64,000 bases of DNA from a phage, in the sequence record PZ357121.2. The stretch is one strand, 5' to 3'. The notes beneath the pieces are model-generated. The model was not told the DNA's origin. It was given only the letters and a program-made list of their open reading frames with translations, and searched no databases. The position numbers and the translations under genes are program-made. Below, one piece after another: positions 7,974 through 40,117 of the stretch (positions are counted from its first letter, which is position 1; every line of letters starts with the position of its first letter).

Positions 7974-7982
7974 AATGTTTCC

Positions 7983-10501: not shown

Positions 10502-11602
10502 TTACGCTGTGAAGATTTTATCCCACATCGCAACAACTGCATCTCGATTATACTTCTTCCATACTGCTTCAGCACGTTTAACTCGAGCTTCGTATGTGTC
10601 AGTGAATTCTAATACAGCTTTTGTGTAAAGCGCAACTACTTCTTTCTTAGGAGTAGAGGAATCAATTTCTACACGCACAGTATCTGGGTCGTATTCGAAT
10701 GTCGCATGAGGATAATCCTTAAAAACTAACTGGATTACAGGGACACCTTTAGAGATGGCTTCAATAGAACTATTCTCTACCGTACCTGTGTCAGGACACG
10801 TATTAATAAGTGCTTTAGCTGTTTTAAGACGTTCCATGATTTCACTGTGTGGAGCATCAATAATAACAGGATACTTAGCCGGTGGTGCCCATTTGCTTGG
10901 ACAGTATCCTGCACCATTTTCGCCTAGTGCTTTAATAGCTTCAAGAGCAACATCAGTACGACGCATTTTAGTGTCATAACGTTGTGCACTAATAATCAGA
11001 TCAGTCGCCGGGAGAACTTCTGGCTTTTCAGTCAAACAAATAACCGGATAATCTTCGGCTTCAAACAACGGATTTGCTCGCCAATAATCATAATCAATTT
11101 TGTCAGTCAGACCTGAAGTCATATAACAATATTTGCGTTCAAATTCACGGAAGGCTTTAGTAGGAGCATAACTCTTACCACCATTCTTATGAATTTGAAT
11201 AGTTTGGTCCCAAATTTGAACAATGCCACGAGATACCGGTTCAAATGGTGTTGCCATAAAATTCTTATGAACTTTAGAGAGACCTACGTCTTTAATTGCC
11301 TGAACGGTTAGTTTAGTCGGTTCCATAGTAACAACAAAATCGTATTCATGGATGCCGGCTAGTTCAACAATCTTACGAGCCATAGTATAACTCATACCTA
11401 GACTGAATTTAGTCAGATGACCAACAGGATGGTGTGTAACTTTCCAGTCACCAAACGTGTCATTATCAAAGCCGATATAATCAATATCAGCACCGATGGA
11501 CACAAGATATTTCAACACATTTAAATGTACTGCTTCAAGGCCACCTTGTACACGGTCAGGATTAAATGGGACTGCACGAGATGGGATAAACATAACTTTC
11601 AT
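10502..11602 (-). CDS. GT-B family glycosyltransferase (366 aa); candidate hmC-DNA glycosyl/arabinosyl transferase
   Basis: ATG ORF; C-terminal motif TGTVENSSIEAISKGVPVI fits GT4-type E-x-E/G-x-PV signature; lies between rIIA and 39 where RB69-type phages are reported to carry their hmC arabinosyltransferase (not verified). Confidence 0.7.
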   Translation of the reverse strand: MKVMFIPSRAVPFNPDRVQGGLEAVHLNVLKYLVSIGADIDYIGFDNDTFGDWKVTHHPVGHLTKFSLGMSYTMARKIVELAGIHEYDFVVTMEPTKLTVQAIKDVGLSKVHKNFMATPFEPVSRGIVQIWDQTIQIHKNGGKSYAPTKAFREFERKYCYMTSGLTDKIDYDYWRANPLFEAEDYPVICLTEKPEVLPATDLIISAQRYDTKMRRTDVALEAIKALGENGAGYCPSKWAPPAKYPVIIDAPHSEIMERLKTAKALINTCPDTGTVENSSIEAISKGVPVIQLVFKDYPHATFEYDPDTVRVEIDSSTPKKEVVALYTKAVLEFTDTYEARVKRAEAVWKKYNRDAVVAMWDKIFTA

Positions 11603-11628
11603 AATTAAGCCTTATTAAAATTAAAATG

Positions 11629-11646
11629 AAGCTCCCGAAGGAGCTT
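11629..11646 (-). terminator. terminator-like hairpin downstream of gene 39
   Basis: AAGCTCC-CGAA-GGAGCTT hairpin followed on - strand by CATTTTAATTTT. Confidence 0.45.
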
Positions 11647-13462
11647 AGGACATCCATTCTTTACGAAGTTCTGAATCATCACCCAACAACATTTCAAAGA
11701 GTTCTTTCCAATTTTCAGGAAGTTTAACTACGTCGTACACAGGATTCTGAATCATTTCACGATATTCTGACTTTTCAAGGGAGCCCAATCCCTTGATGTA
11801 TCGAATACTATGCTTAGGCAGTGTATCTTTAACTTCTTCATACTCAGCTACAGTATAAAACCATTTTTGAGTTTTGCCAATTTGTGCAATAATTACAGGC
11901 GTTTTAACAAAGCGAATACGTCCTTGTTCGAACAATTCGGGCCAATTACTAAAGAAAGCAAGCAAAGCCGGATAAATACTTCCAAGACCATCATGATCGG
12001 CATCGGTCATAATTGCAATATTACGATAGTTCGTATTCTCTGCCTTTTCACCAAGAATAAGACCTGTGATAGCACAGATATCAAAGAGCTCTTTGTTCTT
12101 CATCATATCAGCATATGACATACCCCAGCTATTCATCACCTTACCACGTAATGGGAATCCACCGTGTAGTTCACGGTCACGAACATCAATGAGATAACCA
12201 ATTGCCGAATCACCTTCTGTTAAAAACAATGTCGTATCTGCATCTTTACCACATTGGTTAGCTTTAATATGCTTATGAACCTTAGCTTTAGTTGCCTTTT
12301 TAGCTGCTTTAGTTTCTGCAGCCTTTTCTGCTGCCAATTTACGAGCTAATGCTGCTTCAACAATAGGCATAATCAAGGCTTCGTTTTTAAGAAGTGCCTG
12401 AGCAATTTTCTTAGCATCTAATTGGATATGATTACGAATATCGCCATACGTTGACGTTAAACGTTCTTTAGTCTGAGAATCAAAACGCATGTTGCTCATG
12501 TCTCTAATAAACATCAACATTGTGAGACATTCTTTAACACGAGCTTTAGTGACTTCAATACCCTTATATTTCTTTTTAATGCCGGGCAAAAGATGTTCGC
12601 AGATATCATCCATTACACATTCAACATGATGACCACCATTTTTAGTATGGATGTTATTCACATAAGTTAAATGACGGAAGCCATCTGGTGATGTTGTGAA
12701 TGCTATAGAGACTTTATCATTTTCTTGAATGATGTTATCTTCGCCAAATTGTTTAGCAAATCGTTTAAAATTACCATCAACCTTTTTACCATTAAATGTG
12801 AACTTGATATCAGGATAAACGACTGCCAATGTTTGAAGACGGTCTAAAGTAATATCTAAATAAATTTGAGATAAATTATGCTCTTCAAATGAAGAGAAAT
12901 CAGGAGTGAAGATTACTTTAGTGCCTTTACCTTTAGATTTCTTAGAAGACCACGATTTGTTTTCCATTCCGTTTGAACAGTTAACAGTGATTTCATTTTC
13001 GCCATCTGACGTTATGCCTGTAAACAACGTAGAGAAGATATTAGTTAAACTACTCCCGACGCCGTTCATACCACCAGTCTTGCGTTCAGAGTCATCACCA
13101 AAGTTACCGCCGGCCTTTGGAATAGTCCAGGCTGCTACAGGCCCAGGAATTTGTTCACCTGTTTGGTCGGTAACTAAACCTTGAGGAATACCACGTCCGT
13201 TATCTTCCACCGAAACTTGATTATTTTTAATTTGCACATCAATTTTATTTGCAAACTTAAATGATGTACGAATAGCTTCATCAACCGAGTTGTCAATAAT
13301 CTCATCGATTAATTTAACCAGACCAGGAACATATTCAACTTGTTGATATTTACCAAACAAAAAACGCTCGTGGGCTTCTTTGGCCGAAGAACCAATATAC
13401 ATGCCACTACGTTTCTTAATATGTTCTACATCTGACAATACCTTAATTTCATTTTTAATCAT
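11645..13462 (-). CDS. 39: DNA topoisomerase II large (ATPase) subunit, fused gp39/gp60 type (605 aa)
   Basis: ATG ORF; GyrB-like ATPase motifs; 605 aa continuous, so no split gene 60 or bypass element as in T4. Confidence 0.9.
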   Translation of the reverse strand: MIKNEIKVLSDVEHIKKRSGMYIGSSAKEAHERFLFGKYQQVEYVPGLVKLIDEIIDNSVDEAIRTSFKFANKIDVQIKNNQVSVEDNGRGIPQGLVTDQTGEQIPGPVAAWTIPKAGGNFGDDSERKTGGMNGVGSSLTNIFSTLFTGITSDGENEITVNCSNGMENKSWSSKKSKGKGTKVIFTPDFSSFEEHNLSQIYLDITLDRLQTLAVVYPDIKFTFNGKKVDGNFKRFAKQFGEDNIIQENDKVSIAFTTSPDGFRHLTYVNNIHTKNGGHHVECVMDDICEHLLPGIKKKYKGIEVTKARVKECLTMLMFIRDMSNMRFDSQTKERLTSTYGDIRNHIQLDAKKIAQALLKNEALIMPIVEAALARKLAAEKAAETKAAKKATKAKVHKHIKANQCGKDADTTLFLTEGDSAIGYLIDVRDRELHGGFPLRGKVMNSWGMSYADMMKNKELFDICAITGLILGEKAENTNYRNIAIMTDADHDGLGSIYPALLAFFSNWPELFEQGRIRFVKTPVIIAQIGKTQKWFYTVAEYEEVKDTLPKHSIRYIKGLGSLEKSEYREMIQNPVYDVVKLPENWKELFEMLLGDDSELRKEWMS

Positions 13463-13511
13463 GTTGTCTCCTCGTTATGAAGGTATTCTATCATCCGAAA
13501 TCTAAAGCAAA

Positions 13512-13527
13512 AAGGGCCGAAGCCCTT
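13512..13527 (-). terminator. rho-independent terminator
   Basis: AAGGGC-CGAA-GCCCTT hairpin followed on - strand by TTTGCTTT. Confidence 0.5.
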
Positions 13528-13948
13528 ATTTAAATTTAATTTTCTGAAGTGCATCAATTGCAGCCAAACGCCCTTGTTCACTTTTAACTGTAATGACCAC
13601 ATCGCCTGATACGATCACCGAACCATCAACAAATTCTATAGAGCCTTTTTTGAAATCGACAGCTGTATCTGGTTCCGGAACTTCTTCAAAGAATTTAAAT
13701 TCTGCACCATAAAGCAGAATATCACCTTGCATACTAATGATTGTACGCCCAGGTCCATCGGTTTCAGCGGCAATCATTGAAACACCGTAACCAATCATCT
13801 CTTCTACAATAAAATCTCTTGATAATAAAACTGTATGCAGAGTAGTGTTAAGACGTTTACCAGTTGTATTAAGAATTCTCAAGAAATTATCTTCTTGACC
13901 TTTGATAATACGATATTTCTTACCAACTTCAAAACCTTTAAAAGCCAT
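13526..13948 (-). CDS. hypothetical protein (140 aa)
   Basis: ATG ORF. Confidence 0.6.
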   Translation of the reverse strand: MAFKGFEVGKKYRIIKGQEDNFLRILNTTGKRLNTTLHTVLLSRDFIVEEMIGYGVSMIAAETDGPGRTIISMQGDILLYGAEFKFFEEVPEPDTAVDFKKGSIEFVDGSVIVSGDVVITVKSEQGRLAAIDALQKIKFK

Positions 13949-13951
13949 AAT

Positions 13952-14131
13952 TAACCCTTCTTAAGTAAGTCGTAAAAACCACCGTTCACATGTTTAGGAG
14001 CAGAAACCCGACGAGTAGACAGACGATGACATTCAGGGCAAACATCGTTTTCTCGTTCAGAAATTCTTTTAATTTTTTCATATTCATGACCACAATCTTC
14101 AGATTGGCATTTATAGTCGTATAACGGCATT
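13952..14131 (-). CDS. zinc-ribbon protein (59 aa; two CxxC pairs)
   Basis: ORF below 60-aa cutoff found by reading the gap: MPLYDYKCQSEDCGHEYEKIKRISERENDVCPECHR...; fills the gap between flanking genes exactly. Confidence 0.6.
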
Positions 14132-14132
14132 A

Positions 14133-14543
14133 TTATTCCTTAAAATGTGCTTTCAACATTTGATACAAAGACCATGCCTGGTCATTATTTTCGATAGTAA
14201 TCGTCATCACAGGAAATTCAGACAATTCGCCAAGTTCACCAGAATCTTGCTCTTCAGACGCTTGATATGGATTTTCCACTTCATCAAAAAACTCTGCTTC
14301 GTTCGTGGAGAGCCAGATAAAGTTTTCATCAAGGATATCACCGCCTGTGGCGTATCCAACAGTGCCAGTAGATGTCACAATTTTAGTAGGACGTCCAAGA
14401 TGGTCAACATCTAATACTTTAAACGGTTCCATGCCAAGACGTCGTGCATAAATCCCATTATCAGTGTGGTCTTTAATAAACTCTTCTTGGGCACGTTTAT
14501 CTATAAATTGATACCATGAGTTAACGCGGAATTTATTAGCCAT
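14133..14543 (-). CDS. hypothetical protein (136 aa)
   Basis: Internal ATG (MANKF...) overlaps upstream TAA as TAATG; track ORF extends to 14561. Confidence 0.55.
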
Positions 14544-22221: not shown

Positions 22222-22743
22222 TCAGTAACCATTATCCTGGCGTTCAAAGTTGTGTTGGTTTTTCAAGTAGTAAAGTTTAAAGATTTCTTCAGCGGAAAGA
22301 CCCAGACCTTGGAACATGTTCAGGACAAAGTGCAGAATATCAATCATCTCGAATTTAATTTCAAGCTGGTCTTCAGGAGACAGTTCATCGATACGACGAT
22401 TTCGATATTCAGCATGTTGAGCTTTCCACGGCTTCCATACAGAGCTAGCGGCTTTTTCACCATTGCTCATACCACCAAGTGAAGTCAACAGTTCACGGAA
22501 TTCATCATCAATATAATCTTTCTGATTACGCAGCCAATCAACAACATCACCAGCAGTGGCTAATTCATCGGGATGTTTGTTATGTTCAGGCTTGTCATTT
22601 GCCAGACGAACCTGTAAAGATTTCTGCATATCAAGCATTACCTGCAGAGGGTCTTTATCTTCGTGAATCAGAGCATTAAAATAAGCTTCTTCTGCTTTAT
22701 CAACACCAGAAATAAGTTGTGAACATTCGTTAAAGTGCGCCAT
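22222..22743 (-). CDS. 56: dCTP pyrophosphatase gp56 (173 aa)
   Basis: ATG at 22743 (MAHFNEC...); ...PLQVMLDMQ...ETAGDVVDWLR...IDDEFRELLTSLG...LSPEDQLEIKFE...HFVLNMF...EEIFKLYYLKN matches recalled T4 gp56. Confidence 0.9.
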   Translation of the reverse strand: MAHFNECSQLISGVDKAEEAYFNALIHEDKDPLQVMLDMQKSLQVRLANDKPEHNKHPDELATAGDVVDWLRNQKDYIDDEFRELLTSLGGMSNGEKAASSVWKPWKAQHAEYRNRRIDELSPEDQLEIKFEMIDILHFVLNMFQGLGLSAEEIFKLYYLKNQHNFERQDNGY

Positions 22744-22833
22744 TATTTTTCCTTTCAATTCAGTATAAGAGAGTTTAATTCTAACATTAATTTTATAAAG
22801 CGTAATAAATAATAAGGTAACTAAGGAGATATT

Positions 22834-25427: not shown

Positions 25428-25721
25428 TTATTCACCTGTGATTTCGGTTACGATATCTTTGTTATCGAAATTAGGGTCACAATACAAAACATAGTTGTAC
25501 TGCATGATACCGCCAGACTTAAGTTGTTCAACAACTTTATTAACCATATTAGGACGGTCTCGTTTAGTGATGTTCATGATATCAGAGAAGATTTGTTGTT
25601 CAACATCTTCTTGATTTGCAGTCATTGACCACTCACAGAGGTCTTTATCATAACCTGCTGTAACTGGAGCCGGTGCACATGATACTGCAAGTAAGATTGC
25701 TGCCAATGATAACTTTTTCAT
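25428..25721 (-). CDS. sp: spackle periplasmic protein Sp (97 aa, signal peptide)
   Basis: ATG ORF with AAGGAG SD; MKKLSLAAILLAVSCA...GYDKDLCEWSMTA...KSGGIMQYNYVLYCD... matches recalled T4 Sp (61.3). Confidence 0.85.
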   Translation of the reverse strand: MKKLSLAAILLAVSCAPAPVTAGYDKDLCEWSMTANQEDVEQQIFSDIMNITKRDRPNMVNKVVEQLKSGGIMQYNYVLYCDPNFDNKDIVTEITGE

Positions 25722-25784: not shown

Positions 25785-26033
25785 TTATTCTTTTTCGCGA
25801 ATAATAATTACTTGTTGAGGCTGCTGAGCAGATTTCTTTTCGGCAACGATAGACCAAATTAAAGTTCCAATCCAACCAATCATCGTCCAGTTAAAGAGTA
25901 AAGATACAAAGAAGATTGCCGTTGTGCTTTTTGTGCCACGAATAAGTGCGATTACCCAAGGCAACATGTAAATGATGATTGAACCAATACCTGCGATTAA
26001 AACTGCTACTGAACTAGCCACGAATAATTCCAT
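25785..26033 (-). CDS. small membrane protein (82 aa, 2 predicted TM helices)
   Basis: ATG ORF; hydrophobic segments. Confidence 0.6.
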   Translation of the reverse strand: MELFVASSVAVLIAGIGSIIIYMLPWVIALIRGTKSTTAIFFVSLLFNWTMIGWIGTLIWSIVAEKKSAQQPQQVIIIREKE

Positions 26034-29214: not shown

Positions 29215-29556
29215 TTAAAAGAATTTAAATTTTTTCTTGGTCCGTTCATTAAAAGCTTGTTGTACTTGCATTGTAACACATTTTTCAACATGTGGTGCAA
29301 GTTCTGCTTTTCTGTCCTGGTCAAGAACTGCAAAGTCCATTACGATTTTACCATCAACCCAGTCTAGTTTTGTAATATAGACTATATGATGAGAACCATC
29401 TTCAAGTGTAATCAGAATCTCTTGAATGACATTTTCCATTGCTGAACGGATAATTTTAAGAGATTCATTAAACACTCGTTCTTTGCGAATGTCTTCCCCT
29501 TCCGAAGAAGGGGATTCATCAACGATTTCTAGATTTAAATCATCGAGATTATTCAT
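29215..29556 (-). CDS. 40: gp40-like protein (113 aa)
   Basis: ATG at 29556, 2 nt after uvsX stop (track start is TTG); position uvsX-40-41 and size as T4 gp40. Confidence 0.6.
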   Translation of the reverse strand: MNNLDDLNLEIVDESPSSEGEDIRKERVFNESLKIIRSAMENVIQEILITLEDGSHHIVYITKLDWVDGKIVMDFAVLDQDRKAELAPHVEKCVTMQVQQAFNERTKKKFKFF

Positions 29557-30721
29557 CGAAATCTTCCATTTCGTCAAGGTCGTTTTCTATATCTGCTGCA
29601 GACGGAGCATCAGAAGTTTTAACCGGAACTTTAGTTGTTGCTTTGCAATTAATAAGGTCGTTAACAGCGTCATCAACTTCTTTAATAGAAGAGATAGCAC
29701 CTAGTTTATATTTAGTTTCAATTGCATCTCGGAAAGGTTTGTGTTTAAACAACGGTCCCCAGAATTCTACACAATCAGTAGCTTTAGCACGCCATGATTT
29801 TTCTTCACGAATCATTTCGCCTGTTTCTTCGTCAAGGAATTCTCGAGCATACCACCCGGCTTTAGGCTTAACTACAAAACCAATTTCAGTTGCCATTTCT
29901 AACAAGCCACTGAATGGGTCAATACCACCATCGAAATTAACCGTGATTGGGAAAGTAGATTTTTCTTTAACGGTGCGAGATTTTTCTGCTTTCAACGTGA
30001 AGTCATAACCGGTCAATTCTGTACCTTCTTTAACCTGACGTTTAGAGATAAAGAATACAGTGTTAGCAGAGTAAAGAATACCTGTACCACCACCCATAAT
30101 CTCTTTAGGATACAATCCGCCGATTTCCATTGCTGTATGGTTGATTGCAACACATGGAATATCTTTAATAGTCAGATAAGGAGTCACAATGCGGAACAGA
30201 GATTTAAGTGCCTTAGCACGAGACATATCACCTACAACTTTCTCGTTCAATGCATCTTCAGTTTCTTTCTTAGATGCAGTATTACCGATTGAATCGATAA
30301 AGATAATAACTTTATCACCGCGTTCAATCGCGTCAAGCTGATTAGTCATATCAACTTTAAGTTGTTCGACAGATTGAATCGGAGTATGAACTACACGGTC
30401 TAAATCAACACCCATTGAACGAAAATAAGATTCTGAAGCACCAAATTCCGAATCATAGAACAAACAAATTGCATCTTTATATTTCTTCATATATGCTGCA
30501 ACCATGGTCAGTCCAAACAACGTTTTAAAGTGTTTAGAAGGAGCAGCAAAAATAGTTAAGCCTGATTGCAACCCAGCATTCAGTGCACCACCTAATGCAA
30601 TATTCAACATCGGAATACGAGTAGGGACTTCATCACGATTATTAAACAGCTTAGACTTAGTCAAGTCTGCAGTCATTTTAGAAGTAGAAGCTTTAATCAG
30701 ACGAGATTTTAAATCAGACAT
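29549..30721 (-). CDS. uvsX: UvsX recombinase (RecA-like, 390 aa)
   Basis: ATG ORF; MSDLKSRLIKASTSK... and RecA-fold motifs match recalled T4 UvsX. Confidence 0.95.
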   Translation of the reverse strand: MSDLKSRLIKASTSKMTADLTKSKLFNNRDEVPTRIPMLNIALGGALNAGLQSGLTIFAAPSKHFKTLFGLTMVAAYMKKYKDAICLFYDSEFGASESYFRSMGVDLDRVVHTPIQSVEQLKVDMTNQLDAIERGDKVIIFIDSIGNTASKKETEDALNEKVVGDMSRAKALKSLFRIVTPYLTIKDIPCVAINHTAMEIGGLYPKEIMGGGTGILYSANTVFFISKRQVKEGTELTGYDFTLKAEKSRTVKEKSTFPITVNFDGGIDPFSGLLEMATEIGFVVKPKAGWYAREFLDEETGEMIREEKSWRAKATDCVEFWGPLFKHKPFRDAIETKYKLGAISSIKEVDDAVNDLINCKATTKVPVKTSDAPSAADIENDLDEMEDFDE

Positions 30722-30820: not shown

Positions 30821-31369
30821 TTAACGAGCCCATTTGATAATTTCTGTAATCAAATTATTACGTTCGCTTGCATTAAATCCTATAACTTTGTTAGCACCAT
30901 CATGATTAAGTAATTGATACGTTTGGATTTCGTTATGAATTGCAAACTCTTCAAAATACGAAATGACTGTATTAAACCTGAATGAAGACAAAGTAATAAG
31001 GTCGTCTTCAAAACTTTCAGTCATTTCGTTACGTGTTAAAATAATTGTGAACACATCATGGTTTTGGCAAAGACGAACATAATCCTGTTCATAAACGTCA
31101 AGAACCGAGTCCGCATCTTGTCGAATACGTCCATAAACCCAGTTACTAATATATCCACGGTCTAACAGATAAATCTTAGTAGGGTCTAAATAATTCAACA
31201 TCGTTTCGAAACAGCCAACTTCATTTCGAGACTTAACATCGAAACGTCCATCAACTGTTCGTTTAGGGAAATCAATCTTTACATATCTTTCACTAATTTC
31301 CATTATGTCATTAATGAAAGTTGTTTTACCAGCATTATCCGGGCCATCTACTAAAATAATTTTAGCCAT
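30821..31369 (-). CDS. P-loop nucleotide kinase, thymidylate-kinase-like (182 aa)
   Basis: ATG ORF; Walker A VDGPDNAGKTT and LLDRGY (DRY-type) motif typical of Tmk-like dNMP kinases. Confidence 0.65.
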   Translation of the reverse strand: MAKIILVDGPDNAGKTTFINDIMEISERYVKIDFPKRTVDGRFDVKSRNEVGCFETMLNYLDPTKIYLLDRGYISNWVYGRIRQDADSVLDVYEQDYVRLCQNHDVFTIILTRNEMTESFEDDLITLSSFRFNTVISYFEEFAIHNEIQTYQLLNHDGANKVIGFNASERNNLITEIIKWAR

Positions 31370-31370
31370 T

Positions 31371-32270
31371 TTATTCCTCGATTACGACATCTTCATATTT
31401 AGGTATATTATACGGCGAAGAAATTAAAGCATTAAAGTAGATGAACTCGCCAAGACCTGGATGGAATACTTCTTCAGGATTTTCGAAGTATTGAATCTTC
31501 GGACGTCCTTTAAGAATTTGATAGTACTCAGTTTTAGTTGGTTTAAAAATTCGAATCAGCGCTTCTTCAGGATACTTATTTCTGTCGAAGCTATTATTTG
31601 GATCGGTTATATAAAGCGGTTGACCTAATTGAATTGCACATTCAACCACTTGTTCAAAACGATAGCACGGGTCACTAATTCGAAATGGATGAAAAATACC
31701 ATCTAGATGAATAGGAGCCAAATCACCTACAAGACGCTGCATGATGGAAGGACGTATAACTTTCTGCGTTACGATAATCTTATTACCATCTGCACCTGCG
31801 TTAACCAGCACTTCTTTTTGACGTTCATTCAACACAGTAGTTTGAAGTGAACGATTAACAGACAACATGTCGGTTTTTAAGAATTCGTCAATATAAAAAC
31901 GTGGTTTATTAGGGTCTGCAGTGATATTGAAATTGAATTCTACGTCAAAATTGCCGTCATATCCAGTGATATCTGTGATTAGAAAATCACAATCATAATA
32001 ATCAATTAATGAATCAACCACAAATTCATTTTCAGACCAGAAATATTTACGAGTGTTATATGCGTTATCTTTATACCATAATGGAACAAACTTAAATTCT
32101 GGGAAAAGACGTTCGCATTCTTTAATATCAGATGCATTACGTGGATATGTAATCACATCACCCGGATTAGCACGGTGCAAATGAAGTTGGAAGTTGCCAT
32201 CCTTAAGGATAGCATACTGTCCAGTTTCATAAGACCGCATACTCAAGATAGGTACGCGGAAAATAGCCAT
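31371..32270 (-). CDS. hypothetical protein (299 aa) at the beta-gt locus
   Basis: ATG ORF between uvsX and gene 42 where T4 has beta-glucosyltransferase; no motif recognised. Confidence 0.6.
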   Translation of the reverse strand: MAIFRVPILSMRSYETGQYAILKDGNFQLHLHRANPGDVITYPRNASDIKECERLFPEFKFVPLWYKDNAYNTRKYFWSENEFVVDSLIDYYDCDFLITDITGYDGNFDVEFNFNITADPNKPRFYIDEFLKTDMLSVNRSLQTTVLNERQKEVLVNAGADGNKIIVTQKVIRPSIMQRLVGDLAPIHLDGIFHPFRISDPCYRFEQVVECAIQLGQPLYITDPNNSFDRNKYPEEALIRIFKPTKTEYYQILKGRPKIQYFENPEEVFHPGLGEFIYFNALISSPYNIPKYEDVVIEE

Positions 32271-32986
32271 TAGTCAAGGAATCCTTTAACATAATCAAAA
32301 TCACGGTCAAACACATGGGCACTTACCATGGTATGAGTATAATCACCAACTTCTACACCACATTCTTTAGCGATATAATGAAGTAATTTTCCTTGGAGAT
32401 AAAAATCCAACTGCATAACAACAGCACAGTTCTGAGAACGCATATGACAGTGGGTATAAAGCTTACCATCACGAATATAATAAGTCACTGAGTCAGTACA
32501 TGGATATTCAAGTGTTTCGTCCGAATCAAGCAAAGCCTGATCTGAACTTTCAAGAATTTGAAACACAACTCTTCGTGAATTAGGTTTCTCTTTAAGTTCT
32601 TTGAGAAGAGCTGGTAACTGGGCCGCAATTCGTGGACCATAGAAAGTGTTGAAGTTTGCAGGCAAAGCGTCTGATTTAGGTTTAGAAATAAATTTAGCAA
32701 CGTTAGGATATGCCTTAAATGCTTCTTCTGCGTCGGTACCACCAGAAATCATAAATTTCCAGAAGTCTTCGGCATATTCATAAGAGATGCGGTTAATACG
32801 TGGGTCGGTCATTTTGAATGATGATGGAGTGTCAACAACTACTGTCATAGACCCAATTTCATTACAACGTCCAATACGAGAATCAGTTACGAATTCCGGG
32901 TTTTCTAAAATTTCACGATTGACTGCTTTAAATGCGGATTGAAAATCTGCGGCTTTGATATATTTCATTGTGTTATGTTTTCCCAT
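32270..32986 (-). CDS. 42: deoxypyrimidylate hydroxymethylase, gp42-like (238 aa)
   Basis: ATG ORF with GAGGT SD; catalytic-site region EYPCTDSVTYYIRDGKLYTHCHMRSQN resembles the CT(N/D)xVQYxIRD...MRSND core of T4 dCMP hydroxymethylase; divergent elsewhere. Confidence 0.7.
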   Translation of the reverse strand: MGKHNTMKYIKAADFQSAFKAVNREILENPEFVTDSRIGRCNEIGSMTVVVDTPSSFKMTDPRINRISYEYAEDFWKFMISGGTDAEEAFKAYPNVAKFISKPKSDALPANFNTFYGPRIAAQLPALLKELKEKPNSRRVVFQILESSDQALLDSDETLEYPCTDSVTYYIRDGKLYTHCHMRSQNCAVVMQLDFYLQGKLLHYIAKECGVEVGDYTHTMVSAHVFDRDFDYVKGFLD

Positions 32987-33091
32987 GTTTACCTCAATAC
33001 AGTTATTATATACTCAATTCATAAAGCTTATTTGAATTTCTTAGCGATGTTGATATAACGTAAAGCTTCAGCATCGATACTTCCAAGAACA

Positions 33092-33265
33092 CTATGAAGA
33101 AATGCATCAGCGTAGTATTCTAGTTGAACAGGTTTTAATCACTTTAGCCGCTTTAGTTTCAAACAGGCCCTTATGGGCCTTTTTAAGAATTTGTTCGTTG
33201 CTGTTAATTTTCGTAGTCAAAATCTCTTCGTTAAGTTGGTGGTTAAAAGTTTTTCTAGAAATCAT
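33092..33265 (-). CDS. hypothetical protein (57 aa)
   Basis: ORF below cutoff; ATG overlaps upstream TGA (ATGA coupling). Confidence 0.4.
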
Positions 33266-34422
33266 TCTGGGTACCTCAAAGCGTCGTCAGAGTTAGTTAT
33301 ATCAATAATAGATATAGAATTTTCTGATAACCCATTTTTAGATAACTGACGTTTATAATATCTTTCACAATATGTACACGTCGTCCCGCAGATTTCATTA
33401 GCACAATCGAAATCTGGATGTTTGAACCACCTTTTTTCTAAAAAGCCATCTAACAAAGAGGTTTCAATATTTACCGTATGTGAAAACTCAGTTTCGTTTT
33501 CAAGAGTGAAAATGGTCTCTAAAGGCTTCCACAATTCCAACAAATTACCTTCAAATTTTTCAGAAGCATAAGCTTCAAGAACTTTCAAAATGTAGTCTGT
33601 GCTACCTGTACGTCCCGAAACTTTAAATTGGGTGATACCAATATCGTTATAAAGTTTCAAATCTTGTGGACGAACAAAACGAGTTCTCAACCAGTTAAAT
33701 GGGTCTGTATCACGAGCTTTAATACAGTGCTGCATTGGATATCCATTTAAGGATTTGGCATCATCTACTGTAACATCGGTGCTATGGAAAATATAGCAAG
33801 AGTCACGATAACTACAATGTGTTGTATACCCTTTACCAGCATTAGAACAGAACTCATTTACAAGAACTTCAAATATTATATTGTTCTTATTGCAAAACTC
33901 TGCTGCACGCTTCAGGAAAGAAACTGAACGGTTCTTATGAATTCCACAGCAGACCTTTTTGATATTATATTGGTCATGCAAGTATTTGATTTGAGTTACA
34001 GCATCGACATGTAGAATTGTTGAAACTTCAATCTCAATGTCTTTATTGACTTCACGAACAATTTCCATAACAACAGGGTTAGCGATAGTAATACGCCATA
34101 CGCCTATTGACCAAAGATACTGAACATAATCCTGAATAGCTTTCTTCTTCCACTCAACTAGTTCTCTTTTTGAACCAGGATTTATCGTGTTGAGTGTATA
34201 GTTAAAGCAAATACCTAATTCGTTACAACGTTTAACGTAATCTTCTAACATCTTTTTGTCAACGTCGGGAAGCCTAAAATCAGGTCTGGCTGCTACAAAA
34301 GCCATTTCTCTTGTAGAGCCGTATACTTCGTTTATCAAGCTATTAGGATAAGTTTTATTGAGCTCTACGATTTTATCAAGAAGAGCTAAATCAAAATTCG
34401 TTCCGATTTTAAAGGTATTCAT
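33262..34422 (-). CDS. hypothetical protein (386 aa) with C-terminal Cys cluster
   Basis: ATG ORF; C-terminus CANEICGTTCTYCERYY (Cx4Cx3Cx2C); no family recognised. Confidence 0.65.
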   Translation of the reverse strand: MNTFKIGTNFDLALLDKIVELNKTYPNSLINEVYGSTREMAFVAARPDFRLPDVDKKMLEDYVKRCNELGICFNYTLNTINPGSKRELVEWKKKAIQDYVQYLWSIGVWRITIANPVVMEIVREVNKDIEIEVSTILHVDAVTQIKYLHDQYNIKKVCCGIHKNRSVSFLKRAAEFCNKNNIIFEVLVNEFCSNAGKGYTTHCSYRDSCYIFHSTDVTVDDAKSLNGYPMQHCIKARDTDPFNWLRTRFVRPQDLKLYNDIGITQFKVSGRTGSTDYILKVLEAYASEKFEGNLLELWKPLETIFTLENETEFSHTVNIETSLLDGFLEKRWFKHPDFDCANEICGTTCTYCERYYKRQLSKNGLSENSISIIDITNSDDALRYPE

Positions 34423-34476
34423 TTTTGCATCTCGCGTTAATTGTTGCGATGGTTTTTGCAGGTCTTACTTAAATTA

Positions 34477-34863
34477 TTATAGATTCGGTTTATATGATTT
34501 AAATGTTTCGAATTCGCCTTTATTCATAAGAGCTTTGAATTCGTCAGGACGCATAGCTTTGTCGTCGATAATCCAATCATATACTGGTTTATGTGTTAGC
34601 AAATTATGGTACTTCAATCCAATGTTTGCCAAGTTCTGAATCAGACTTGGGAGAATGTCAATTGCTATACGACCAGGACCGACTGACTTCATACCGCGAG
34701 CAGTGTAAAGCGTTATGGTATGCCCTGCATCATACAGGGCATTAATGGCAGACACCATTTCGACGTCTGGTTTGAAGTTCACGTAATCACGATTGTTATT
34801 CCACTCTGTTATACAATCATCGACATCAAAACAAAGATTAAGCATGTTTTCTACACGGTGCAT
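34477..34863 (-). CDS. HAD-superfamily phosphatase (128 aa)
   Basis: Motif I FDVDDCIT (DxDxT) near N-terminus; start at 34863 overlaps upstream TAA (alternative ATGs at 34878 and 34845). Confidence 0.65.
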   Translation of the reverse strand: MHRVENMLNLCFDVDDCITEWNNNRDYVNFKPDVEMVSAINALYDAGHTITLYTARGMKSVGPGRIAIDILPSLIQNLANIGLKYHNLLTHKPVYDWIIDDKAMRPDEFKALMNKGEFETFKSYKPNL

Positions 34864-36548
34864 TAGATTCGTTCCCATTGATGAGTGATATCGCCACCGA
34901 TTGGACGATAAGAAACACCAGTTTCTTTATCAGTTAGTACCCATTTACCAGGATTTTTTGTAATCAGAGTAGCCGTTACAGGTTCTGCTACATCATAACT
35001 AATAGTGCCGTCCTGAAGTACACGGCCCATGTTACGTAATTGCTTAGTCAGAAGTTCCATACCTTTATAATATGCGGCTACCGCTTTAAGTGGATTATTC
35101 TTGAAATAACCACCTAATGCAATCCAGATAATTGCCACTGCCAAATGATGATACTCGTTAAACGAACTCATCTTTCCATATTTGTAAACTAACGGATTGA
35201 TGTTAATAGTCACATTACAAGTTGTTTCATCAATAGTAAACTGTCCCCAAGTCGGATTAGCGTTGAATTCATCATAACCTGAAACAGCGTAAAGCACTTT
35301 AGCTTCATCATACAATTTTGGCCCATAAATCTTGGTTTCACCAAAATATCCACGAGGGTCGATAAACTTGACTTCACCATTATCAGTAATCATAGTATTA
35401 CTGAAGTTCGGGTCACCATGAATAACAGAGTACTGTCCCTGAGAACGGTTATGATAACGAATAAGGTGTTCTAAAGCTTGTTTCAACATTGGCTTCAGAC
35501 GCCCAATCTTAGTGTAGTTCACATGTGTGATTTTACCAAATGAATCAATCAATGGTTGAATACTTTCACAACGATCAATAACTTTAGTATAGAATTCTTT
35601 AGTGAAATCACGACGAACAGTTTCAGGACTTACAAAATAAGTGTCTGTGCTGAATTTCAGTGCATCTAAAATTGCATCAACAATTTGTGGACGAGCAAGA
35701 CTTGATTTGGATTTAATATATTCAAATGCCGGCTTACCTTTAATGCGTTCCATTTCAAAGTTATTTTCATTAACAGAAACTAACTGAGGAACTGAATCTG
35801 ATTTCACTTTAAGATACCATGAAATCTCATCTTTCTGAAGAGCTCGGCCCTGTTCGGTTAATGCGAATTTAGTTACAGTTTCTTCACCAATTTCAACTGC
35901 ATTAAAACTACGATTAAGTTCACGAACTTCATGAGCTTTTTCAAGTTTAGGCATATCACCTAAATCAATTAGATTCATAAGCTCTGATTTATTGAATGCG
36001 CTGCCGTAAAGGAATTCTACGAAATCACGTCCTTTGCAGTATTCATGAATTTCCTCATCAGTAGAACCCATATAGAATTCCCAGTCTTTGAACTGATAAA
36101 TTCCTACAACATTACCACCTGTTGAACCTACATTAGTGATATTTTCACCGTCGAAATTATATCGACATTCGTCACCCTTAACATAGATTGCGTTAACATT
36201 CCAAGACCACGAACCAAAATCAGGAATAATATCACACCAGTTAACAATTACATTATGGCCGTCTAAATCTTTGTGCAATTTAGCAAGAGCATAAGCAGAA
36301 CCATACGCTTCATCAACTGTACGAATAGTCACATTGAACCCTTCTTGCTCACAATAAGCTCGAACAGTTTCAGCAAATTTTGAATGAACTACTACAATAA
36401 TTTCATCTGCGCCAAGGTCAGAATAAATTGTATACAAATTGCTCAGAATAGTGTCTTGTTTATAGTTAACAAGCACCTTAGGAATATGATGCGTTATTGG
36501 ATACAAACGAGTTGCCAGTCCAGCACCAAGAATAACAGCTTTTTTCAT
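34863..36548 (-). CDS. bifunctional sugar-1-phosphate nucleotidyltransferase / sugar kinase (561 aa)
   Basis: N-terminus MKKAVILGAGLATRL is the nucleotidyltransferase G-x-G-x-R signature; C-terminal IHGDPNFSNTMIT is an APH/choline-kinase-type catalytic loop. Confidence 0.75.
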   Translation of the reverse strand: MKKAVILGAGLATRLYPITHHIPKVLVNYKQDTILSNLYTIYSDLGADEIIVVVHSKFAETVRAYCEQEGFNVTIRTVDEAYGSAYALAKLHKDLDGHNVIVNWCDIIPDFGSWSWNVNAIYVKGDECRYNFDGENITNVGSTGGNVVGIYQFKDWEFYMGSTDEEIHEYCKGRDFVEFLYGSAFNKSELMNLIDLGDMPKLEKAHEVRELNRSFNAVEIGEETVTKFALTEQGRALQKDEISWYLKVKSDSVPQLVSVNENNFEMERIKGKPAFEYIKSKSSLARPQIVDAILDALKFSTDTYFVSPETVRRDFTKEFYTKVIDRCESIQPLIDSFGKITHVNYTKIGRLKPMLKQALEHLIRYHNRSQGQYSVIHGDPNFSNTMITDNGEVKFIDPRGYFGETKIYGPKLYDEAKVLYAVSGYDEFNANPTWGQFTIDETTCNVTININPLVYKYGKMSSFNEYHHLAVAIIWIALGGYFKNNPLKAVAAYYKGMELLTKQLRNMGRVLQDGTISYDVAEPVTATLITKNPGKWVLTDKETGVSYRPIGGDITHQWERI

Positions 36549-36589
36549 GTTGTGGTCCTCATTGGTAAGTAGGAGTATTGTACACTATT

Positions 36590-36733
36590 CTAGTTAAAGC
36601 ATTCATACTTTGCTTGTAGTCCAATCATAATCCATCCGATTATAAGAGTCGGAATCATTACTGGAGCCGTTAAGCTCCAGTAGATAGTCATGACAAGCAT
36701 CAATAGTAAAAGTCCTATTGTTATTGCTTTCAT
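36590..36733 (-). CDS. small membrane peptide (47 aa, 2 TM)
   Basis: ORF below cutoff; ATG overlaps SIS gene TGA (ATGA coupling); hydrophobic. Confidence 0.45.
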   Translation of the reverse strand: MKAITIGLLLLMLVMTIYWSLTAPVMIPTLIIGWIMIGLQAKYECFN

Positions 36734-37365
36734 TGTTCGCCTCGTAACATGGCACCTAGTGCACCACCAGGGTGGAACTTAAGGAAGTCATTAGAGGTAA
36801 ATCCACGTTCAGACGAAAGGTTGATAGCAAACGTATCGATAAGCGCTAACAACAATGTAGTGGACATGGTCGGAGCCAGAGAATTCTCATCAACCTCTAC
36901 TGCGATGCCTGTACAGAACGTATAATCAAAAAGAGCTTCGTATTCTTGTGGAATGTCCGGGTTACAATGCAACAGAATCTGTTTGACGTTCGGACGAATC
37001 ATTTTAAGATGCTTAGCCACGCCTATCATTTCTTCAGTTTTACCAGAACGACTAATATGAATCAACACATCATTAGGCGCAATGAATCCTGCATCACCGT
37101 GAGAATAATGCCCAGTGTTCAAGTACATACTCGGGATACCAAGTGAAGCAAATGTCTCAGAAGCTTTAGTTGCAATATTAGCATTCTTACCAACACCTGT
37201 AATAATTACTCGGCTTTCATAATTACTAAGTCCTGGGCGTCGAAGAGTTTCTAGAATAGCATTATAACGAGCAGGGTTTTGACTAATTACTTTGGCCATA
37301 GCGGCCAAAGAAGAAGCTTGTTTTATGATTGCGTCAATAGCGATAGTAATAGGAGTAGTTTTCAT
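36730..37365 (-). CDS. SIS-domain sugar-phosphate isomerase (211 aa)
   Basis: ATG ORF; SIS signatures GVGKNANIA and HISRSGKTEEM as in GmhA/KdsD-type isomerases. Confidence 0.75.
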   Translation of the reverse strand: MKTTPITIAIDAIIKQASSLAAMAKVISQNPARYNAILETLRRPGLSNYESRVIITGVGKNANIATKASETFASLGIPSMYLNTGHYSHGDAGFIAPNDVLIHISRSGKTEEMIGVAKHLKMIRPNVKQILLHCNPDIPQEYEALFDYTFCTGIAVEVDENSLAPTMSTTLLLALIDTFAINLSSERGFTSNDFLKFHPGGALGAMLRGEQ

Positions 37366-37405: not shown

Positions 37406-40117
37406 TCAAAAATCGAACATATCGAACAGAGATGCTTTCTTCTCGTAATCGAGTTTCGCTGCTGATGTGAATCCTTCAAGTGGTTTAATAAATGTCTTCT
37501 CAAGGAGAACAGTGTAGTCCATCCAATGAAGTACATCGTCTTTAATTAAATCTGTGATTTCAGTACCAGAAGGCCATGCGATACATTTATCACCGAATGG
37601 GTTTCCTTCACGTAAAGGCAGAACATATACTTTTTCACCTTCTACAACTTGCGGTGCATCGATATTACCTTTGATAGCCCGGTTATACGTCAGAATTCCA
37701 CGAATATGGAACGGGCATTTAGGACCAGGGAATCCACCTACATCATATTTAGCAATGTTATTCGCAGAAGATACCGACGCGATGCTAATATAATTCAATT
37801 GACGGAATTCTTTTTCAAACTCTTTAAAATATTCTTGTAATGATTCTTCACCTTCTTGAAGCATACGACGAATACATTCTTTAAGAGCTTTCTGTACTGC
37901 TTTAGGAGTCGAAGATTTCTGAGTCTCTAGACCCATGATTTTGAGTTTAGGCTCAGCGTATCTGGTTCCTTCCATATCCCACACGTTTAATGCATAACGT
38001 TTCTTACCAGTCCAGAATCCACCAATACCTTTAGAACCGAGTGGAGGACCAGCGATAGCTTCTCGGTCCATGAACATTAAGTGTTGTTTATTGTTCATGT
38101 ATTCACACATTTCACGGAAACCTCTATCAATAGCAGGTTCCATACGTTCACGTGCAAACTTATCTAAGAAGTCTACCCAATGGTTGGTATCACGGAATTT
38201 AGATTCACCAACCTTATCGATAATTTTATCAGCAGATACGTAAATAGAGTCCGTATCACCATAAAGAACGAAAGCTTCACCTTCCGTACCACAAACTTCA
38301 TTCAGATATTCATTAACTTTACGTTCAATCCACTGTAAAGCCATTTGACCAAATGTTGTGATTGCAGTAGCATTACGCAAATCATAATAACGGAACCAAA
38401 CGTTGCCAAGTGCACCATAAAGTGAGTTGATAAGCAATTTACGGTTAATTTGGGCAGTCATACCTGCAACTTCAGTACGTTGAGCTCTAAACAACATTTC
38501 GTTAAGAGATTTAGCGGACAACTTTTTAATCTTTTCTTTAATCTCATCACTGAAGTCGAAACGATAATCAACATCTAATGGTTCGTCAACAGAAAGATTA
38601 GGATTATGCAATGCCTCTTTAATTATTTCACCATTACGTTGAGCTGCAAGCATGTAACCTTTATGTTCTTTACGTTGATTAAAGACCTTAGTGATTTCAG
38701 TTGGAACAACACCGTCACGGTCTTTATAATACATCATGCCGTTAGGAGAGCAACTATACACATCTGAAGGACGTTCAGCAACAGCGTTAATATAATCATG
38801 CAATGGAGCTACTTTAAACGTTCCTGCTATTGTTTCTGGGCTAATATTCACTTGGCGAATAATACTTGGATACAGAGATGTAAGGTCGAAACTCATTACA
38901 TATTTGTATCGATTTGGAATAGGTTCCTTAACAAAAGCGCCGGGATAAGGTTGAACCGGGTGAGAACGACCTTGTGGAATCACCTTGTTCTGCTCTTTAA
39001 GGCTATTAAAAATAATAGCATCCCATGTTTTAATTGGGCTAAACACAGATTGAATCTGAATTTTAGCATAATAACCCATGTCCAAACTCAAGTTGATGAA
39101 CTGACGCTTAGCATCAATTTGCAATACACGATACACGTCGATAATGTTATAAGAAATATATCGTTGGTGATTGCTTTCACGAAGCTTAGAAATAGGGCCG
39201 TCATATTTCAGTTTACCAACGTTCAATTCAAATTCTGAAATGTAATCCAGAGAATATGATGGTTGATTGGTAAAAGAGAATTTTTTGTAAAGGTCAATGT
39301 AATCAAGAACAGAGATACCGAACAATGTAATGATTTCACGAGAACCATACATGTTTTCGATAACTTTAACACGAGTTTTACGATGTGGTGACAAACGTTT
39401 CGCAGTAGATTCGCCAAAAATATTCTTGATTCGGTTATACACATATGGAATATCAAATGACTCAACGTTCCATCCAGTCAAAATGACAGGAGTTTTTTGT
39501 TGCCAGAAGTTGAGATATTCCATCAACAATTCTTTTTCGTTATCGAACGGCATATAAATGATTTTATCGATAATTTCGGATGGAACTTCATCACCACCTT
39601 GTTCTTGAAGCTTAGCCGCAATTTCAATAGACCATTCTTCTACATTACCATATGGAGAATTCAATAGATCAAATACGTAGAACCTGTCATCAATTGAGTC
39701 ATAATGGGTGATAGCATCAATTGGATGTTTTGCTTGTGACGGCTCAGGGAACCCATCTGGAGATGTTACTTCGATGTCGAAGTTAGCCACACGAATTTTT
39801 GTATGGTCGTATTTAATTTCATAGTTATAAGTGTCAGACAAATACGCCAATTTGAAATCGTCCATGCCAAGTGCTTCAAGTCCGATATCTTCCATGCGTT
39901 TAATCCATTGGGAGGCATCACGCATATTAGCGAACAACTTACGAGTACACGGCTTACCATAGATATCGAAATATTTCGTAGCCTGACTTTCCGGACAATG
40001 AGCAAACAGTGATGGTTTATATTCTACTTCACGAGTACGTTCACGGCCGTTAGAATCGATGTAACGTTCAAAAATTGAATCACCAATCTGTTCAACCGTT
40101 AAGTAAAATTCTTTCAT
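37406..40117 (-). CDS. 43: DNA polymerase gp43 (family B, 903 aa)
   Basis: ATG ORF; MKEFYLTVEQIGDSIFERYIDSNGRERTRE..., exonuclease and YGDTDS polymerase motifs; 903 aa and sequence match recalled RB69 polymerase. Confidence 0.95.
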   Translation of the reverse strand: MKEFYLTVEQIGDSIFERYIDSNGRERTREVEYKPSLFAHCPESQATKYFDIYGKPCTRKLFANMRDASQWIKRMEDIGLEALGMDDFKLAYLSDTYNYEIKYDHTKIRVANFDIEVTSPDGFPEPSQAKHPIDAITHYDSIDDRFYVFDLLNSPYGNVEEWSIEIAAKLQEQGGDEVPSEIIDKIIYMPFDNEKELLMEYLNFWQQKTPVILTGWNVESFDIPYVYNRIKNIFGESTAKRLSPHRKTRVKVIENMYGSREIITLFGISVLDYIDLYKKFSFTNQPSYSLDYISEFELNVGKLKYDGPISKLRESNHQRYISYNIIDVYRVLQIDAKRQFINLSLDMGYYAKIQIQSVFSPIKTWDAIIFNSLKEQNKVIPQGRSHPVQPYPGAFVKEPIPNRYKYVMSFDLTSLYPSIIRQVNISPETIAGTFKVAPLHDYINAVAERPSDVYSCSPNGMMYYKDRDGVVPTEITKVFNQRKEHKGYMLAAQRNGEIIKEALHNPNLSVDEPLDVDYRFDFSDEIKEKIKKLSAKSLNEMLFRAQRTEVAGMTAQINRKLLINSLYGALGNVWFRYYDLRNATAITTFGQMALQWIERKVNEYLNEVCGTEGEAFVLYGDTDSIYVSADKIIDKVGESKFRDTNHWVDFLDKFARERMEPAIDRGFREMCEYMNNKQHLMFMDREAIAGPPLGSKGIGGFWTGKKRYALNVWDMEGTRYAEPKLKIMGLETQKSSTPKAVQKALKECIRRMLQEGEESLQEYFKEFEKEFRQLNYISIASVSSANNIAKYDVGGFPGPKCPFHIRGILTYNRAIKGNIDAPQVVEGEKVYVLPLREGNPFGDKCIAWPSGTEITDLIKDDVLHWMDYTVLLEKTFIKPLEGFTSAAKLDYEKKASLFDMFDF

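Follow-up and report, generated by a model that had tools for sequence, protein, structure and literature searches.

What do the genes lying between uvsX and gene 43 in RB69-like phages make, and is their product destined for the phage DNA? The question is raised by sequence record PZ357121.2, a stretch of 64,000 nucleotides of phage DNA ("the window" means this stretch at its full length) that represents an RB69-like T-even phage of the genus Mosigvirus. An earlier, sequence-only reading had described eight open reading frames (ORFs) in this slot as a sugar-nucleotide island. All eight are present, together with a ninth of 52 aa; each is encoded on the minus strand, in the interval bounded by uvsX (29549-30721) and the DNA polymerase gene 43 (37406-40117). 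The island is the published RB69/HY126-type cytosine hydroxylation-arabinosylation cluster, and is already known: attention was drawn to it in 2018 (Thomas), and the details followed in 2025-2026 (Mahler 2025; He 2026; Lee 2026). Taken as a whole, the system is very probably the cytosine hydroxylation-arabinosylation cluster of an RB69-like Mosigvirus. One of its genes encodes a Peptidase_U32-family iron-sulfur (Fe-S) protein, referred to below as U32, for which a role as a second, O2-independent hydroxylase is proposed with a chance put at about even.

The chemistry of the cluster comes from two main studies of RB69. Thomas et al. found arabinose on RB69 DNA in 2018, called the modification arabinosyl-hydroxymethylcytosine (ara-hmC) from high-performance anion-exchange chromatography (HPAEC) and matrix-assisted laser desorption/ionization (MALDI) data, and named an eight-gene module, notably ORF055c (SIS) and ORF53_52c (a 561-aa protein), as the likely source of uridine diphosphate (UDP)-arabinose (PMC6024577). 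Using mass spectrometry (MS) and nuclear magnetic resonance (NMR), Lee et al. showed in 2026 that RB69 DNA contains, in place of cytosine, beta-D-Araf-(1-3)-alpha-D-Araf-5-hydroxy-2'-deoxycytidine, where Araf is arabinofuranose; an ether bond joins the sugar to 5-hydroxycytosine, and hydroxymethylcytosine (hmC) is not the base (PMC13326640). In the same study, the thymidylate-synthase homolog gp48 was found to make 5-hydroxy-deoxycytidine monophosphate (5-hydroxy-dCMP), with oxygen coming from 18O2 and with loosely bound flavin mononucleotide; expression of gp48 in E. coli yields 5-hydroxy-2'-deoxycytidine (5hodC) of 243 Da, or 245 Da under 18O2 (PMC13326640). The authors assigned products between gp45 and gp55 as a kinase, arabinosyltransferase 1, the hydroxylase, a HAD phosphatase, a bifunctional kinase/pyrophosphorylase and an arabinose-5-phosphate isomerase, and listed RB69p028 as a dCTPase (PMC13326640). 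The deoxynucleoside monophosphate kinase step has been demonstrated for RB69 gp159. According to the account given by Lee et al., He et al. reconstituted the sugar pathway in 2026 with AfhE and AfhF of phage HY126, from arabinose-5-phosphate through arabinose-1,5-bisphosphate and arabinose-1-phosphate to UDP-arabinofuranose (PMC13326640). Virion DNA with arabinosylated 5-hydroxycytosine has been demonstrated in RB69, and the same is reported of HY126, Bas46 and Bas47 (PMC13326640).

Evidence that the window carries the same cluster comes from direct comparison with these phages. The 6.8 kb around the cluster matches 152 phage records over at least 80% of its length, at least that many have the cluster between uvsX and gene 43, and the closest records by nucleotide match are phage F2 (98.9%) and phage HY126 (97.7%). 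Identities to the HY126 proteins are 99.5% for the kinase, 99.0% for the 299-aa protein, 98.3% for the hydroxylase, 99.5% for U32, 96.2% for the HAD phosphatase, 96.8% for the bifunctional enzyme, and 100% for both the 47-aa peptide and the isomerase. Four HY126 proteins are in the PDB, and matches in the window can be named for the hydroxylase, the phosphatase and a second glycosyltransferase. The genes, their order, the slot between uvsX and gene 43 and the signature residues of the hydroxylase are all shared; there is no substantial difference, the window being a slightly different isolate in which the small ORF after U32 has another length. The core of the cluster is also present in Kanagawavirus, Dhakavirus and Acinetobacter phages. 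There is no base-composition sign of recent foreign origin, since G+C content is 0.33-0.42 across the region, the same as in the flanks.

Three points weigh against a simple transfer of the published pathway to this phage. An exact database record for the window is absent, the best match being the one at 98.9%. Arabinosyl-5-hydroxycytosine chemistry is known from RB69-type relatives, whereas the present phage is known from its sequence alone. Finally, the published assignments for RB69-type phages are themselves predictions in the case of the isomerase, the two transferases and the Tmk-like kinase (PMC13326640).

For the base branch, the decisive gene is the thymidylate synthase (TS)-family ORF at 32270-32986 (238 aa; Pfam 1.9e-15), of the RB69 gp48 type. 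The sequence-only reading had called it a divergent gp42-like hydroxymethylase. The homology stands, as the protein is the sole gp42 homolog in the window (25% identity to T4 gp42, E 1e-12), but the activity does not. The protein matches PDB structures 9iqc and 9ir2 (also 9iqu) of HY126 with E 3.2e-161, and 234 of its 238 residues are identical to those of the HY126 enzyme, for which C5 hydroxylation of dCMP has been demonstrated, as it has for RB69 gp48. On alignment, C163, E160, N186 and D194 correspond to ThyA C146, L143, D169 and N177. The Asp at the ThyA D169 position is kept in T4 gp42 and in ThyA, whereas the window protein has Asn; no T4-type gp42 with Asp at this position is found in the window. 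Lee et al. used a D169N/N177D/L143E-type signature to recognise 5-hydroxy-dCMP synthases (PMC13326640). Judged by these residues, the ORF is a flavin- and O2-dependent dCMP 5-hydroxylase, not a hydroxymethylase, and would hydroxylate dCMP at C5 using flavin and O2.

The 5-hydroxy-dCMP so formed would be raised to the triphosphate by phage kinases and then incorporated by the polymerase. The Tmk-like P-loop nucleotide kinase at 30821-31369 (182 aa), of the RB69 gp45 type, may take part in this phosphorylation. Its description as Tmk-like holds up, with a match to the phrog_761 thymidylate kinase family at 4.3e-45; Pfam and NCBIfam give P-loop-level matches only, and a sequence search of the PDB with this protein found nothing real. 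Homologs of the kinase accompany the 299-aa transferase family in other phage contigs (4e-20, 2e-7). A gp56-type dCTP pyrophosphatase, assigned by homology and synteny, lies at 22222-22758 on the minus strand, and the syntenic gene of phage F2 is annotated as a nucleoside triphosphate pyrophosphohydrolase. By homology, this enzyme would clear dCTP so that only the modified nucleotide enters DNA.

The sugar branch is made up of three contiguous genes, those for the isomerase, the bifunctional enzyme and the HAD phosphatase, and the earlier assignments of these proteins were sound at the family level. The D-arabinose-5-phosphate isomerase of the RB69 gp55 type (36730-37365; 211 aa) consists of a SIS domain only, without CBS domains (Pfam SIS 1.7e-10; NCBIfam KpsF/GutQ 2.2e-32 and KdsD 1.2e-30; PDB 3etn 5.5e-25 and 2xhz 6.5e-19). 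The bifunctional kinase/nucleotidyltransferase of the RB69 gp52:53 or HY126 AfhE type (34863-36548; 561 aa) has an N-terminal NTP_transferase domain (PF00483, 8.5e-10, residues 3-99) and weak APH/fructosamine-kinase/EcKL signals in Pfam over residues 308-409; it also matches NCBIfam sugar-1-phosphate nucleotidyltransferases (7e-14) and PDB 1jyk (2e-5). The HAD phosphatase of the RB69 gp51 or HY126 AfhF type (34477-34863; 128 aa) matches PDB 9iqw from HY126 (1.8e-87) and 1xpj (4.9e-10), and all of its 128 aa agree with the HY126 protein. The longest ORF reaches 34878; the most likely start is 34863, which relatives and 9iqw share.

The predicted order of steps follows from these families and from the published work. 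The SIS isomerase would convert ribulose-5-phosphate to arabinose-5-phosphate, as family matches and the published prediction suggest. The C-terminal kinase domain of the 561-aa protein would then make arabinofuranose-1,5-bisphosphate, the HAD phosphatase would take off the 5-phosphate to give arabinose-1-phosphate, and the N-terminal nucleotidyltransferase domain would produce UDP-arabinofuranose. The kinase, phosphatase and pyrophosphorylase steps are expected in the window phage from the 97-100% identity to HY126. The earlier proposal that an isomerase, a kinase, a phosphatase and a nucleotidyltransferase follow an ADP-heptose-like logic to give nucleoside diphosphate (NDP)-arabinose from ribulose-5-phosphate, and that the set serves arabinosylation of RB69-type phage DNA, agrees with the literature (PMC13326640, PMC6024577). 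The sugar donor is not a host metabolite, unlike the host UDP-glucose used by T4, and the phage therefore carries its own four-activity UDP-arabinose pathway.

Transfer of the sugar to DNA would involve two GT-B glycosyltransferases, one in the cluster and one near rIIA. The 299-aa protein in the cluster (31371-32270), of the RB69 gp46:47 type, was described as unknown in the sequence-only reading; it has a GT-B glycosyltransferase fold. A sequence search of the PDB gave nothing real for it. It is predicted to be the first arabinosyltransferase acting on 5-hydroxycytosine in DNA. The second glycosyltransferase (10502-11602, minus strand; 366 aa) lies between the gene for the topoisomerase large subunit and rIIA, 20 kb from the rest of the pathway. 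It belongs to phrog_8302 and matches PDB 9iqz/9ir0, "phage HY126 glycosyltransferase", with E 4.7e-249; the RB69 ORF003c type to which it belongs has been given the role of arabinosyltransferase 2 (PMC6024577, PMC13326640). The two proteins would act on the 5-hydroxyl of the base in DNA, adding first one arabinose and then another, with order and specificity as suggested by these assignments.

Two other accounts of the pathway can be set against this evidence. In the one favoured by the sequence-only reading, the divergent gp42 homolog makes hydroxymethyl-dCMP and the island supplies NDP-arabinose, giving arabinosyl-hmC. The name used for the RB69 modification in 2018 and the homology to gp42 are in its favour. 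For RB69 it has already been refuted, both by the ether link to 5-hydroxycytosine and by the formation of 5hodC by gp48 in E. coli, and in the window the Asn at the ThyA D169 position and the 98% identity to the HY126 hydroxylase structure also argue against it; it is highly improbable here. The enzymes could instead make NDP-heptose or another sugar nucleotide for host capsule or lipopolysaccharide, not for DNA, and NDP-heptose had been considered equally possible. Parallels with the GmhA/HldE/GmhB route are real: each pathway has a ketose-phosphate isomerase, an anomeric kinase giving a bisphosphate, a HAD phosphatase and a nucleotidyltransferase, with the kinase and transferase fused. In addition, the best NCBIfam match of the HAD protein is a capsule biosynthesis phosphatase (TIGR01689, 4.3e-13), and database annotators use the label "phosphoheptose isomerase". 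However, the SIS protein is of the KpsF/GutQ type and matches arabinose-5-phosphate isomerases rather than GmhA, for which no NCBIfam model was found at E up to 0.1. In the 561-aa protein the two catalytic domains are APH/choline-kinase-like and RmlA/GlmU-like, and do not belong to the HldE families (a PfkB kinase with a cytidylyltransferase-like adenylyltransferase). The pathway uses a pentose, and UDP rather than ADP; its genes are always linked to a dCMP hydroxylase, to DNA-type GT-B transferases and to replication genes; and the sugar on RB69 DNA is arabinose (PMC6024577, PMC13326640). Family assignment and published chemistry together exclude a heptose product, and a capsule or lipopolysaccharide role is scarcely credible.

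Comparison of the arabinosylation cluster with T4 is fair because T4 has uvsX-segA-b-gt-42-imm-imm.1-43 in the same place; the order uvsX, beta-gt, 42, imm, 43 given earlier was correct, with segA and imm.1 omitted. The two systems share the slot, the use of a TS-family enzyme to modify dCMP before replication, a dCTPase that excludes dCTP, and GT-B transferases that glycosylate DNA after replication. They differ in that the window system adds a hydroxyl rather than a hydroxymethyl group and uses flavin and O2 rather than methylene-tetrahydrofolate. T4-type glucosyltransferase genes were not found: tblastn with T4 beta-gt found no homolog in the window (best E 3.3), alpha-gt was not searched by sequence, and the GT-B proteins present belong to other families. 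The claim that beta-gt and imm had both been replaced is right for beta-gt and wrong for imm. An 82-aa Imm homolog is encoded at 25785-26033 on the minus strand (65% identity to T4 Imm, E 3e-31, tblastn), beside sp (25428-25721), indicating that imm moved about 5 kb and was not replaced. In Dhakavirus Bp7, imm still adjoins gene 43, next to a similar cluster. Two superinfection-exclusion genes, imm and spackle (sp), are thus adjacent in the lineage of the window.

The gene with the least settled role encodes U32, of the RB69 gp50 type (33262-34422; 386 aa). The sequence-only reading recognised a Cys-rich protein and left it at that; the protein belongs to the Peptidase_U32 family (PF01136, 6.3e-11, 42.4 bits against a gathering cut-off of 22.4). 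An AlphaFold2 model has a pLDDT of 92.5, and the PDB structure that matches it best is 5d88, also of a U32 protein. Searching the PDB by sequence and by family profile gave nothing real, a match to BIM1 being due to chance. Identity to the homolog of Enterobacter phage Entb_45 is 86.7%, as compared to 87.7% for UvsX, 81% for the hydroxylase and 80% for the polymerase, and U32 is, judging from these values, under strong constraint. Nine Cys are invariant in all 121 homologs aligned, namely C158, C192, C203, C209, C233 and those of a CX4CX3CX2C motif at 340-352. C192, C209 and C233 align with C169, C176 and C192 of RlhA, C169, C176 and C193 of UbiU, and C170, C177 and C193 of TrhP. The ligand numbering for UbiU is reportedly that of Pelosi et al. 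2019. By hhalign, the best of the E. coli proteins compared with the phage family profile is RlhA (probability 82%, E 1e-5, 205 columns). RlhA also has essential C-terminal cysteines, like the C-terminal cluster of the phage protein.

These E. coli relatives suggest a function, and despite the family name none of the U32 proteins with a characterised function is a peptidase. RlhA is needed for 5-hydroxycytidine 2501 in 23S rRNA and requires Fe-S clusters and prephenate, and its C169 and C176 are essential for formation of the modification (PMC5727448). TrhP carries out prephenate-dependent formation of 5-hydroxyuridine (ho5U34) in tRNA, beside the O2-dependent TrhO (PMC6599085). In ubiquinone synthesis, UbiU and UbiV carry out hydroxylations without O2, taking the oxygen from prephenate (PMC10990095). 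By analogy, U32 may form 5-hydroxycytosine in a prephenate-dependent reaction that does without O2, either on a nucleotide or in DNA itself, a proposal that stands about an equal chance of being right or wrong. The phage protein shares with these enzymes the U32 domain and the aligned cysteines, and would likewise be paired with an O2-dependent enzyme. It differs in forming a subfamily of its own, whose identity to the E. coli proteins is about 18-19% and in which a 10-residue insertion bears the extra invariant C203; it is also phage-encoded and lies in deoxynucleotide and DNA-glycosylation neighbourhoods, its activity being a prediction.

A possible link to prephenate, of an indirect kind, comes from related phages. 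In Enterobacter phage Entb_45, a gene for a 79-aa type-II chorismate mutase (Pfam CM_2, 2.4e-10), an enzyme that makes prephenate, overlaps the end of the U32 gene. By tblastn, chorismate mutases of this type were found in 51 phage records, the sole matches among 50,697 records, and in every annotated record among the 51 the gene adjoins the TS-like gene. It occupies the slot between the U32 and hydroxylase genes that in the window holds the 52-aa ORF, and a prephenate source stands next to U32 in many phages. None of the 222 phage matches to U32 falls below 80% identity, and the U32-bearing phages listed have Enterobacterales or Shewanella as hosts, among which U32 is not universal. None of the 57 Acinetobacter phage records with the bifunctional sugar enzyme has a U32 match; in the DLP1 cluster the HAD gene is directly followed by the hydroxylase gene. 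Acinetobacter is a strict aerobe. A rule by which a facultatively anaerobic host implies the presence of U32 was rejected, as it fails for the E. coli Dhakavirus Bp7.

Beyond these phages, a large clade of U32 homologs with 48-58% identity occurs in unrelated, phage-like metagenomic contigs. Its neighbours include genes for dCMP deaminase, thymidylate kinase, deoxynucleoside kinase, NT5C, nucleoside deoxyribosyltransferase, uracil-DNA glycosylase and Pol III alpha. In three contigs, a homolog of the 299-aa transferase directly precedes and overlaps the U32 gene (hhalign probability 99.4-99.8%, E 1e-21 to 1e-27), and there is no TS-family gene within 7 kb of U32 in any of the three. Contig L018 has a Tmk-like kinase homolog close to U32 (E 2e-7), and a weaker Tmk-like signal is seen in L011. 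The L011 row (5777-14179) consists of a DXD glycosyltransferase, the weak Tmk-like kinase, the 299-aa transferase homolog and U32, followed by a TET-associated glycosyltransferase overlapping the end of U32, a dUTPase/DCD-like gene and a UDP-galactopyranose mutase gene; it contains no TS-family gene and no TET gene. This row looks like a different glycosylated-hydroxypyrimidine system built on U32. It resembles the TET/JBP dioxygenase systems, in which a base-hydroxylating enzyme and a TET-associated glycosyltransferase make glycosylated cytosines (PMC8256090), in that a gene of the same glycosyltransferase family overlaps the U32 gene; it differs in that TET oxidises 5-methylcytosine in DNA with O2, Fe(II) and 2-oxoglutarate. 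Conversely, contigs L022 (4739-7594) and L023 (4715-7555) carry a Flavodoxin_2 gene, a TS-like gene with an RSQN signature, the 299-aa transferase homolog and the Tmk-like kinase, and no U32. These neighbourhoods suggest that two alternative hydroxylase cassettes can supply one and the same transferase-kinase pair, both being present in the window.

Some further neighbours in the contigs are worth recording. A flavin reductase beside a flavin-dependent hydroxylase, as in L022 and L023, would fit the chemistry; the window cluster is without such a gene. Recurrent neighbours of the U32 homologs (loci L010 6545-10804, L018 4980-6011, L019 4972-6000 and L007 10160-11185) are a gene for a 248-aa DAHP_synth_1-family protein (6e-44) of the shikimate-pathway or Kdo8P-synthase type and an epimerase gene. 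A radical SAM enzyme gene lies two genes upstream in several contigs.

Several points weigh against the proposal. In air U32 is dispensable, as 5-hydroxycytosine forms in E. coli with the TS-like enzyme alone (PMC13326640). Dhakaviruses of E. coli, such as Bp7, carry the pathway without it, and the window has no chorismate mutase homolog (best E 0.46), meaning that Mosigviruses, including this one, would depend on host prephenate. Alignments by hhalign to the single sequences of UbiU and TrhP are weak, and hydroxylation in vitro by any U32 protein has yet to be shown (PMC10990095). Lee et al. label RB69 gp50 a "sugar or heterocycle reductase" in their Table 1, noting structural matches to the U32 "collagenase" 5d88, and give it no further discussion (PMC13326640). 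Nothing in searchable full text connects phage DNA modification with U32 proteins, RlhA, prephenate or chorismate mutase; He 2026 and Mahler 2025 are outside that scope and may address the gene.

The competing explanation is that U32 is no cytosine hydroxylase at all and is instead a sugar or heterocycle reductase, a protease, or an RlhA/TrhP-like enzyme acting on host or phage RNA. The published reductase label, the peptidase name of the family and the RNA substrates of RlhA and TrhP (PMC5727448, PMC6599085) each favour one version of it; in its favour, too, the pathway runs without U32 in air, in Dhakaviruses and in Acinetobacter phages. Against a reductase, the established pathway requires no reductive step. 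RlhA, TrhP and UbiU/V, which are all the functionally linked members named, are tied to prephenate-dependent hydroxylation (PMC10990095), and a chorismate mutase gene is the immediate neighbour of the phage gene in 51 records. Homologs in other phage contigs lie not beside RNA genes but beside those for the 5-hydroxycytosine-type transferase, a TET-associated glycosyltransferase, dCMP deaminase, deoxynucleoside kinase and DNA polymerase, which also speaks against this explanation. A role other than cytosine hydroxylation is nonetheless a serious possibility, if short of an even one.

If U32 is a hydroxylase, it would act on C5 of cytosine in dCMP, in another nucleotide or in DNA, with prephenate as the oxygen donor and electron transfer through its Fe-S clusters. 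RB69-type phages would then hold a flavin/O2 route and an anaerobic route to the same base, as in the pairs TrhO/TrhP and UbiIHF/UbiUV, and U32 would sustain full DNA modification when the host is anaerobic and the flavin/O2 enzyme is stopped, the gut being one such setting. In many relatives the phage chorismate mutase would assist U32, and in other, mostly uncultured phages U32 would be the sole hydroxylase feeding DNA glycosylation.

Expression signals and two small ORFs complete the locus. A MotA box, GCTTTA, followed after 11 nt by TATAAT, can be read from the sequence just upstream of the hydroxylase gene (33005-33027), and further MotA-box/-10 sites lie upstream of the bifunctional gene (36577-36600) and the kinase gene (31407-31430), all on the minus strand. 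The pattern GCTTNA-N12-TANNNT occurs 13 times in the window where 3.6 are expected, and 11 of the 13 are on the minus (coding) strand. By their match to the consensus, these MotA-like sites would fit pre-replicative expression from promoters of the T4 middle type. Generic scans for sigma-70 promoters and terminators were at chance level. The 52-aa ORF (33107-33265), which separates the U32 gene from the TS-like gene, is a member of the conserved phage family phrog_8601 (1.8e-24); it is only 71% identical to its HY126 counterpart, and among near-identical Mosigviruses its length is 40, 49, 52 or 53 aa. It was considered as a decayed chorismate mutase and rejected, there being no CM_2 signal. 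The 47-aa peptide (36590-36733), encoded between the isomerase and bifunctional genes and fully conserved, was a membrane peptide in the sequence-only reading; it is very hydrophobic, with mean Kyte-Doolittle hydropathy up to 2.17 in 19-residue windows, and probably has two membrane spans. It matches phrog_3610 (4.5e-27); its library matches give no function, no annotated counterpart was seen in Entb_45 or Bp7, and one public record mislabels it "phosphosugar isomerase". Database names for the other proteins are inconsistent and partly wrong: the HAD phosphatase appears as "phosphoheptose isomerase" or "haloacid dehydrogenase", the hydroxylase as "thymidylate synthase" or "dCMP hydroxymethylase", U32 as "peptidase" and the bifunctional enzyme as "GlmU".

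The finding re-identifies a pathway published in 2018-2026 in phages 98-99% identical to the window phage, and the value of the check lies in its corrections, by which the base becomes 5-hydroxycytosine, the TS homolog becomes a hydroxylase, the 299-aa protein acquires a glycosyltransferase fold, and imm counts as relocated. The cluster lets RB69-type phages escape bacterial nucleases by means of arabinose-decorated 5-hydroxycytosine. The DNA modification of Mosigviruses blocks Cas and restriction nucleases, and these phages are often candidates for therapy, which makes the cluster relevant to phage therapy and engineering. If the proposal for U32 is true, the U32 family would gain its first DNA-directed role and viruses their first prephenate-dependent step, and the field would have the compact, soluble U32 member still wanted for in vitro assay. 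The chemistry of prephenate as an oxygen donor would then extend to viruses and DNA precursors, and would explain how gut phages fully modify their DNA without oxygen.

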